Shown: one piece after another, positions 7,043-7,194 of the stretch
Position numbering within the stretch: the first letter of the stretch is position 1
Layout: each line of letters starts with the position of its first letter
From: a virus
Taxonomy: Duplodnaviria; Heunggongvirae; Uroviricota; Caudoviricetes
Reading direction: 5' to 3' (one strand)
Virus record (IMG/VR): IMGVR_UViG_3300029490_000143
DNA length: 7,870 bases
Position numbers and translations under genes: made by a program
Notes under the pieces: model-generated
What the model was told of the DNA's origin: nothing
Database searches by the model: none
Seen by the model: only the letters and a program-made list of their open reading frames with translations

Positions 7043-7194
7043 TTATTGTTTAACCCATAATAATTCATTGACATTGAATCCCAACTTTTGAGCGGTTCGC
7101 ACATAGTCTGCTTTTACTTTATCTGGAATAGTTGGGGTCCTTGCCAGAATCCATAGGTATTCTCTGTTCGGACCACTGACAAGAGCATACTTAT
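7043..7194 (-). pseudogene. Bacterial lipocalin (Blc-like) gene, C-terminal fragment truncated by IS2
   Basis: The - strand translation ...NKYALVSGPNREYLWILARTPTIPDKVKADYVRTAQKLGFNVNELLWVKQ* resembles the C-terminus of E. coli Blc as I recall it (...GPDRDYLWILSRTPTISDEVKQ...GFDVSKFIWVQQ). The frame runs straight into the IS2 terminus at 7195; the ATG at 7231 in the track ORF lies inside IS2 and is not a real start. Confidence 0.6.

Follow-up and report, generated by a model that had tools for sequence, protein, structure and literature searches.

A very probably non-functional 3' remnant of a Blc-like prophage lipocalin gene adjoining an IS2 end in a lambdoid prophage at att-lambda

The 7,870-nucleotide stretch of DNA recorded in IMG/VR as IMGVR_UViG_3300029490_000143 (hereafter the window) carries, at positions 7043–7194 of its minus strand, a short coding segment that runs up against the end of the insertion sequence (IS) IS2, which raises the question of what gene the segment belonged to, how that gene came to lie in phage DNA and whether the rest of it is found on the far side of the IS. 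A first-pass annotation made from the letters had read the segment as about 50 codons of the C-terminus of a Blc-like lipocalin, ending in a stop at 7043, deprived of its 5' part by an IS2 terminus at 7195 and possibly representing prophage cargo. Our analysis indicates that the segment is very probably a non-functional 3' remnant (codons 126–174) of a prophage-borne gene for a Blc-like outer-membrane lipocalin. Nothing about the fragment is new in kind, and the phage gene has been described before.

The fragment comprises 152 nt, namely two nucleotides of codon 125, codons K126 to Q174 (49 of the 174 codons of the intact gene) and a TAA stop codon at 7043–7045, and the motifs quoted by the first-pass annotation, GP-REYLWIL-RTPT and WV-Q, are found in the minus-strand translation of 7043–7240. 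Its translation matches the Pfam profile PF08212 (Lipocalin_2) at profile positions 95–146 of 146 with an E-value of 9.3e-12 and a score of 45.6 bits, the cut-off of this profile being 24 bits. The comparison with Blc and with phage-encoded lipocalins that had been suggested as a check gave a collinear, gap-free alignment to residues 126–174 of Escherichia coli Blc (PDB 1QWD; E = 2.2e-13) and a match to positions 126–174 of 174 of the phage family phrog_2809 ("lipocalin family protein"; E = 1.1e-22). This similarity to lipocalins is far above chance, and the idea of a chance open reading frame (ORF) was rejected. At the nucleotide level, 6961–7194 (234 nt) is 100% identical to the intact loci of phage IdasGreatGrand (L001) and of the prophages of TOK-001 (L003) and XJ5.2 (L004). 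The identity breaks off exactly at 7194, where the intact gene continues as ...cttat|actcatcatcc (...CTTAT|ACTCATCATCC) and the window as ...cttat|tggatttgcccc (...CTTAT|TGGATTTGCCCC). The absence of substitutions relative to the common allele, over what is a short stretch, gives no sign of long decay after insertion. Missing from the remnant are the promoter, the start codon, the signal peptide with its lipobox (including Cys19) and residues 1–125 as a whole, which make up 72% of the fold; the GKWYEIAR (G-x-W) motif falls in the missing part, and with 49 of 174 residues left the complete eight-stranded calyx is absent. Because of these losses the window copy is a pseudogene, that is, a gene remnant of the Blc/Lipocalin_2 and phrog_2809 families and not a functional member of them. 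The remnant most likely has no function, and it would not be expressed as a functional protein.

The proposed truncation by IS2 at 7195 is borne out by alignment with annotated copies of the element. The 676 nt from 7195 to 7870 align from the first base both with the IS2 of TOK-001 (96.2%) and with the IS2 variant in FG92-1 (99.3%), and because these two copies have different flanks, 7195 is a true IS2 terminus. The terminal sequence, the rve transposase and the orientation all match IS2 (IS3 family), the window copy being a 96% variant of the TOK-001 copy. The ORF at 7206–7862 on the minus strand is the 3' part of the transposase gene orfB (rve, 6e-20; rve_3, 1.6e-18) and reads toward 7195, so that it is the right IS2 end that adjoins the remnant, and transposase and lipocalin gene point the same way. 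The window junction reads …AATCCA|ATAAGTATGCT…. The window ends within IS2; judged by the length of the FG92-1 copy (1331 bp, flanked by the 5-bp repeat GCCAG), the far end is expected near 8525, about 655 nt past the window. One end of the element is visible in the window, and with it one presumptive copy of the 5-bp target duplication (Table 1).

The properties of the gene before its truncation can be read from intact loci. In XJ5.2 (L004, 13723–14247) it measures 525 nt and encodes 174 aa with a lipoprotein signal, …FTLIAC (lipobox LIAC, Cys19), and the lipocalin GxW motif (GKWYEIAR). The best PDB matches of the intact allele are the E. coli Blc structures 3MBT (E = 3.5e-69), 1QWD and 2ACO, with E-values ranging from 3.5e-69 to 8e-68, and its amino-acid identity to E. 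coli Blc is 60% over the full length, the Blc residues used for this figure agreeing with those in the PDB alignment. The two proteins have the Lipocalin_2 fold family and the lipobox in common, but the phage gene is a distinct, prophage-carried paralogue and not the chromosomal gene. Binding of lipids and lysophospholipids in the outer membrane is known for E. coli Blc only. By analogy, the intact phage protein may be made in the lysogen as an outer-membrane lipoprotein that binds lipids, as Blc does; its independent expression in lysogens is assumed from the example of blc and other morons, no convincing sigma-70 promoter being predicted on the lipocalin strand in the 193-nt upstream spacer.

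The position of the gene in other phages and prophages shows that it is phage cargo. It is carried by 12 sequenced coliphages, some of which have it annotated as "Lipocalin Blc"; the annotations read for two of them, IdasGreatGrand and Lambda_2E9, place it in antisense orientation with Q on one side and a YbgA-family gene on the other, ahead of the holin, lysozyme and Rz genes. Among the IMG/VR loci, the lipocalin gene is convergent to Q and located between Q and the holin gene in all 80 of 80, with a spacing of 161–170 nt in 79 and a 1.3-kb insertion in one, and Q itself is 97–100% identical in 79 of these loci, the remaining one being a partial match at 77%. A YbgA-like gene (2-thiour_desulf and DUF1722) lies 193–198 nt upstream of the lipocalin gene and divergent from it in each of the 78 IMG/VR loci that reach far enough; beyond it, where the contig extends, come a gene for an AraC-type helix-turn-helix (HTH) protein and then the holin gene. 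The prophages of TOK-001, XJ5.2 and FG92-1 have the lipocalin gene in the same position and orientation, and it occurs in 21% of the complete E. coli genomes (1135 of 5426, with at least 80% of the gene present in 1042), BL21(DE3) being a carrier. In every locus examined, the lipocalin cassette goes together with the Q allele found in the window. The G+C content is 43.8% for the lipocalin gene, 43.3% for the YbgA-like gene, 31.6% for the AraC-type gene and about 34% for the spacers, compared with 47.9% for Q, 52.3% for rusA and 48.6–49.0% for the lysis genes. The lipocalin gene constitutes an accessory cassette ("moron"); its G+C content is below that of its neighbours, and its transcription opposes the late operon. 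The earlier suggestion of prophage cargo is right but not new, since "blc, a bacterial lipocalin" was listed as one of the morons that occur in more than 50% of 19 lambda phages from the infant gut (Mathieu et al. 2020, PMC6969025). The first-pass annotation placed the antisense lipocalin right after the late-regulatory region, which needs correction for the window, where an IS256-family element intervenes between Q and the fragment.

The closest known relatives of the remnant are the blc moron of Lambda_2E9, the Lambda_ev series and 1H12 (PMC6969025) and the members of phrog_2809, which belong to the same family and occupy the interval from Q to the lysis genes in the same position and orientation. 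The intact allele is 93.6% identical in nucleotide sequence to the Lambda_2E9, Lambda_ev and 1H12 phages and 100% identical to IdasGreatGrand. In contrast to the lambda blc moron, the window copy keeps codons 126–174 only, is cut by IS2 and has an IS256-family element before Q when read from the remnant, and most of its prophage is lost. In place of the lipocalin gene, prophages that share the rusA allele have an antisense porin gene or a DUF3800 gene, and such alternative cargo at the same place indicates that the slot is the well-known variable site for cargo that separates Q from the lysis genes. In loci with the same ybcO-rusA-ylcG module (L107–L116), the Q-to-holin slot holds the lipocalin/YbgA/AraC cassette, an antisense nmpC-like porin gene, once with an adjoining IS5-type element, or the DUF3800 gene, and two Q families, PF06530 and PF06323, accompany these alternatives.

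The Q-to-lysis cargo position is also the site of nmpC in DLP12 and of stx in Stx phages. The nmpC gene of DLP12 in E. coli K-12, the arrangement of which recurs in L111, is likewise an antisense gene for an outer-membrane protein between Q and holin, in a likewise defective lambdoid prophage with the same ybcO-rusA-ylcG-Q module, and likewise inactivated by an insertion sequence; it differs from the lipocalin case in that the cargo is a porin, the insertion sequence is IS5 and not IS2, and the attachment site is another one.

Chromosomal relatives point to a source for the cassette. In species-representative contigs of Enterobacter, Leclercia, Huaxiibacter, Buttiauxella and Raoultella (L017–L026), a lipocalin 74–81% identical to the phage protein is found with a YbgA homologue (70–73%) at a distance of 1–1.5 kb and in the divergent arrangement seen in the phage, and these contigs gave no Q or holin match. 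In the contig of Enterobacter mori (L022, 7589–10522), the only one scanned for this purpose, genes for an MlrA-like MerR regulator and a transthyretin-like protein lie between the lipocalin and YbgA genes, and no phage genes were found among the intervening and flanking genes. The simplest reading is that the lipocalin and YbgA-like genes were probably captured together from an Enterobacter-type chromosome. We also encountered a 2113-bp contig (L016, JARKOR010000135.1) in a metagenome-assembled genome (MAG) that serves as species representative of "Candidatus Nanosynbacter"; it carries partial Q, the lipocalin gene and a partial YbgA-like gene at 99–100% amino-acid identity, bounded by IS3 ends, and is almost certainly a misbinned or contaminating piece of an E. 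coli prophage.

The most likely course of the truncation is that an IS2 variant, in the same orientation as the lipocalin gene, inserted after nucleotide 378 of the gene and split it at codons 125/126. A clean insertion with a 5-bp duplication predicts that the far flank consists of lipocalin nt 1–378 followed by the IS2 left end TAGACTGG…, and the interrupted gene would yield a 126-aa product whose TAG stop comes from the IS. Read on the plus strand of the window, the IS2 left end (…GGGGGCCAGTCTA) would lie near 8525 and would be followed by CTTATACTCATCATCCAGTTTG… and lipocalin codons 125 down to 1; the sequence expected from about 8526 onward is thus CTTATACTCATCATCCAG..., in which the lipocalin gene would run backwards from codon 126 to codon 1, and the YbgA-like gene would come after a spacer of 193 nt. 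Public data contain both halves of such an allele. The predicted 126-aa protein is present in a collection of about 15 billion predicted proteins for three of the five lipocalin alleles tested, and L207 (Logan SRR24316105), the contig that reaches furthest past the break among those with this product, ends …GATGAGTATAAG|TAGACTGGCCCCCTGAATCTCCAGACA, that is, with lipocalin nt 1–378 and then the IS2 left end (the junction letters are also given as ...GAGTATAAG|TAGACTGGCCCCCTGAATCTCCAGACA and as ...GATGAGTATAAG|TAGACTGGCCCCC, with the IS2 left end after the bar). Site and orientation of this junction are the same as in the window, and the 5-bp ATAAG is common to both. For the other half, a 49-aa C-terminal partial lipocalin is annotated on 87 contigs, and L217, L218 and 22 similar contigs, SKESA contigs among them, start exactly at the window breakpoint, 152 nt before the stop. 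The reciprocal junction together with the contigs that start at the breakpoint indicates that an IS2::lipocalin allele with both halves circulates in E. coli and makes simple IS2 insertion the likeliest origin of the remnant.

Other readings of the fragment and of the junction have to be weighed against this one, beginning with those that concern the nature of the fragment. That it derives from the chromosomal, ampC-linked blc of E. coli and is not phage cargo might be suggested by the PGAP label "blc: outer membrane lipoprotein Blc" on some copies of the gene, and is scarcely credible given that the intact allele is only 60% identical to Blc at the amino-acid level, that the fragment is 100% identical at the nucleotide level to prophage and phage alleles, and that it lies inside an att-lambda prophage, adjoining Q; this candidate was rejected on the strength of the two identity values. 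Somewhat less remote, and still very improbable, is that the 62-aa ORF from 7231 to 7043 is an expressed chimeric gene with a function of its own, driven by read-through from the IS2 transposase. The ORF is uninterrupted, has a GTG start, is co-oriented with the IS2 transposase and is followed by a hairpin. However, neither the exact protein nor any of nine N-terminally shortened versions (50–62 aa) has an exact match among the roughly 15 billion predicted proteins, the product would lack a signal peptide and a lipobox and comprise only 28% of the lipocalin fold (residues 126–174 of 174), and a reading frame that runs into IS2 is a by-product of insertion. The chimeric ORF is thus probably not a gene.

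The more substantial question is whether IS2 marks a simple insertion or a rearrangement. It is probable in our assessment that the insertion was simple and that the genome still has lipocalin residues 1–126 on the other side of the IS2 left end, some 655 nt after the window stops. Several observations weigh against this view. The far IS2 flank lies outside the window, which stops inside the element; the exact junction 35-mer gave no match in genome_contigs, viral_contigs or metagenome_contigs, and the predicted far-junction patterns gave none in viral_contigs or metagenome_contigs. Among the 5426 complete E. coli genomes, a 240-nt junction query found no match in a single piece and none covers more than 83% of the window; the exact ybhC, rusA and IS256-transposase alleles occur on other contigs, none of which has the window's arrangement. 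L207 represents a different lipocalin allele from a different sample and the prophage backbone of L217 is only 98% identical to that of the window, so these contigs establish that the insertion allele exists but are not proof that this genome kept both halves. In addition, none of the contigs above 50 kb in the protein collection has the 126-aa N-terminal product, and the prophage has already lost several kilobases elsewhere, which makes a second rearrangement at IS2 plausible. In such a rearrangement, by an adjacent deletion or by IS2–IS2 recombination, the missing 5' two thirds of the lipocalin gene would have been lost or moved elsewhere, as would the remaining prophage genes (the YbgA-like gene and those for lysis and structural proteins), and the far flank would be unrelated. 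We regard this as possible, if rather unlikely. The heavy degradation of the prophage speaks for it, with the early, immunity and replication region missing at 4261–4264 and a second IS 81 nt after the Q stop, as do the absence of the intact split gene's product from long contigs and the IS2 copies found 0.3–0.8 kb from the lipocalin gene in ten complete genomes, which make recombination partners common. Yet the breakpoint is exactly that of a clean insertion with 5-bp duplication for which L207 supplies the reciprocal junction, many draft contigs break at the identical nucleotide, and a deletion starting from an IS2 elsewhere, for example at the FG92-1 position, is unlikely to hit the same bond by chance.

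The site of the putative simple insertion has been struck by other elements as well. The bond after lipocalin nt 378 is occupied by IS2 in L207 and in the window, by IS3 in L209 (with a 26-mer identical to the annotated IS3 end in XJ5.2) and by a third, IS3-family-like end in L211, and in L198 IS1 is located 2 nt further on (27 of 28 positions matching the IS1 end). Different public assemblies thus have at least four different insertion sequences within the same 2-nt interval (nt 378–380) of this gene, and the imperfect palindrome GAGTATA-AG-TATGCTC is centred on the site; these cases were found through a search for the 126-aa product, which makes the sample conditional on that very site. It is doubtful that codon 125/126 is a true insertion hot spot common to unrelated insertion sequences; if it were, it would represent a DNA-structure target for several transposases or the result of recurrent selection for lipocalin knock-out in lysogens. 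The spacers around the gene are also repeatedly struck in other genomes: FG92-1 carries IS2 (L015, 9623–10953; duplication GCCAG) and XJ5.2 carries IS3 (L004, about 14440–15697) in the spacer between the lipocalin and YbgA-like genes, in L109 (about 7208–8427) the lipocalin gene has lost part of its 3' end to an IS3-family element, leaving 158 aa, and L167 has its 1.3-kb insertion between Q and the lipocalin gene. We considered whether L167 has the IS256-family insertion of the window and rejected this, as the insertion is a different one at a different site.

Between Q and the remnant, the only terminator-like site predicted in the region is a hairpin at 6986–7016 which, in intact loci, is found 99 nt downstream of the stop codon of Q and 33 nt downstream of that of the lipocalin gene. 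The hairpin probably represents tR' of the late operon, the terminator at which a short pR' leader would end unless overridden by Q-modified polymerase, and probably also the 3' boundary of the convergent lipocalin transcript. Upstream of this terminator and 81 nt after the Q stop lies the IS256-family element, which has imperfect terminal inverted repeats and lies between two copies of an 8-bp direct repeat, CATATAAC (5633–5640 and 6961–6968), prophage sequence resuming at 6961. Its full-length copies are 100% identical on plasmids of Enterobacter, Citrobacter and E. coli and 99.4–99.6% identical in Acinetobacter, which suggests a recent arrival. The element would also break the late operon. 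The exact transposase occurs on two further contigs that are E. coli-like and chromosomal as judged by flanking genes (GCA_030410235.2 and GCA_052982405.1), and the same element is present in the E. coli chromosome NZ_CM130037.1.

Taken as a whole, the window represents part of an E. coli-type chromosome and reaches into a lambdoid prophage at att-lambda, whose left end it contains (Table 1). At 4261–4264, a deletion junction with a 4-bp overlap joins xis-proximal DNA to partial ninE and the ybcO-rusA-ylcG-Q module; compared with TOK-001 and XJ5.2, the recombination, immunity and replication region between xis-proximal DNA and ninE/ybcO is missing, and no IS is present at the junction. Together these features are best read as an att-lambda prophage in decay, with its early region deleted, an IS256-family element placed in the spacer between Q and its terminator, and IS2 inserted in the lipocalin gene. 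On the host side, 1250–1430, between ybhJ and ybhC, contains REP-like (repetitive extragenic palindromic) repeated units whose mirror ORFs encode repeated peptides, and the copy number of these units differs from that in XJ5.2, as seen from overlapping BLAST pieces. Rfam at gathering thresholds found no family in the window.

Table 1. Coordinates of the features recognised in the window, with strand and basis of assignment.
Feature	Position	Strand	Basis
ybhJ (partial)	16–1245		ORF listing
ybhC (host)	1479–2762	-	ORF listing
Lambda att core GCTTTTTTATACTAA, 15 bp	2809–2823		Exact match, 0 expected by chance
Left prophage end	2809–4163	-	int 2897–3967, xis 3945–4163, adjoining host ybhC
ybcO, rusA and ylcG before Q	rusA 4597–4959		YbcO 2.7e-40, RusA 6.4e-23 (Pfam)
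Antiterminator Q, 125 aa	5182–5559	+	Phage_antitermQ 2.5e-51
Complete IS256-family element, 1320 bp	5641–6960	-	Transposase 5680–6888, Transposase_mut 4.2e-122; breakpoints from comparison with XJ5.2 (L004)
Intrinsic-terminator-like hairpin AGCCAGCCT-CCCCAA-AGGCTGGTT with T run	6986–7016	+	Promoter/terminator prediction; position conserved in XJ5.2 (L004)
3' remnant of blc-like prophage lipocalin gene	7043–7194	-	Translation, Pfam, 1QWD, phrog_2809, 100% identity to L001, L003 and L004
Mechanical 62-aa chimeric ORF: GTG start in IS2 end, 13 IS2 codons and 49 lipocalin codons	7043–7231	-	ORF listing
CTTAT (ATAAG on the gene strand), presumptive copy of 5-bp IS2 target duplication	7190–7194	.	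Junction read; ATAAG common to L207
IS2 variant (IS3 family), right-hand 676 nt, terminal repeat TGGATTTGCCCC	7195–7870	-	Alignment to TOK-001 and FG92-1, rve domains

In summary, the correct annotation of 7043–7194 is that of a pseudogene remnant of a prophage lipocalin (phrog_2809) in a cryptic att-lambda prophage that IS2, an IS256-family element and a deletion are breaking up. The remnant has little significance beyond annotation, and the question of function concerns not this remnant but the very common intact phage lipocalin. The locus is an example of how lambdoid prophages take up genes for outer-membrane proteins in the cargo slot between Q and the lysis genes, which insertion sequences then erode.

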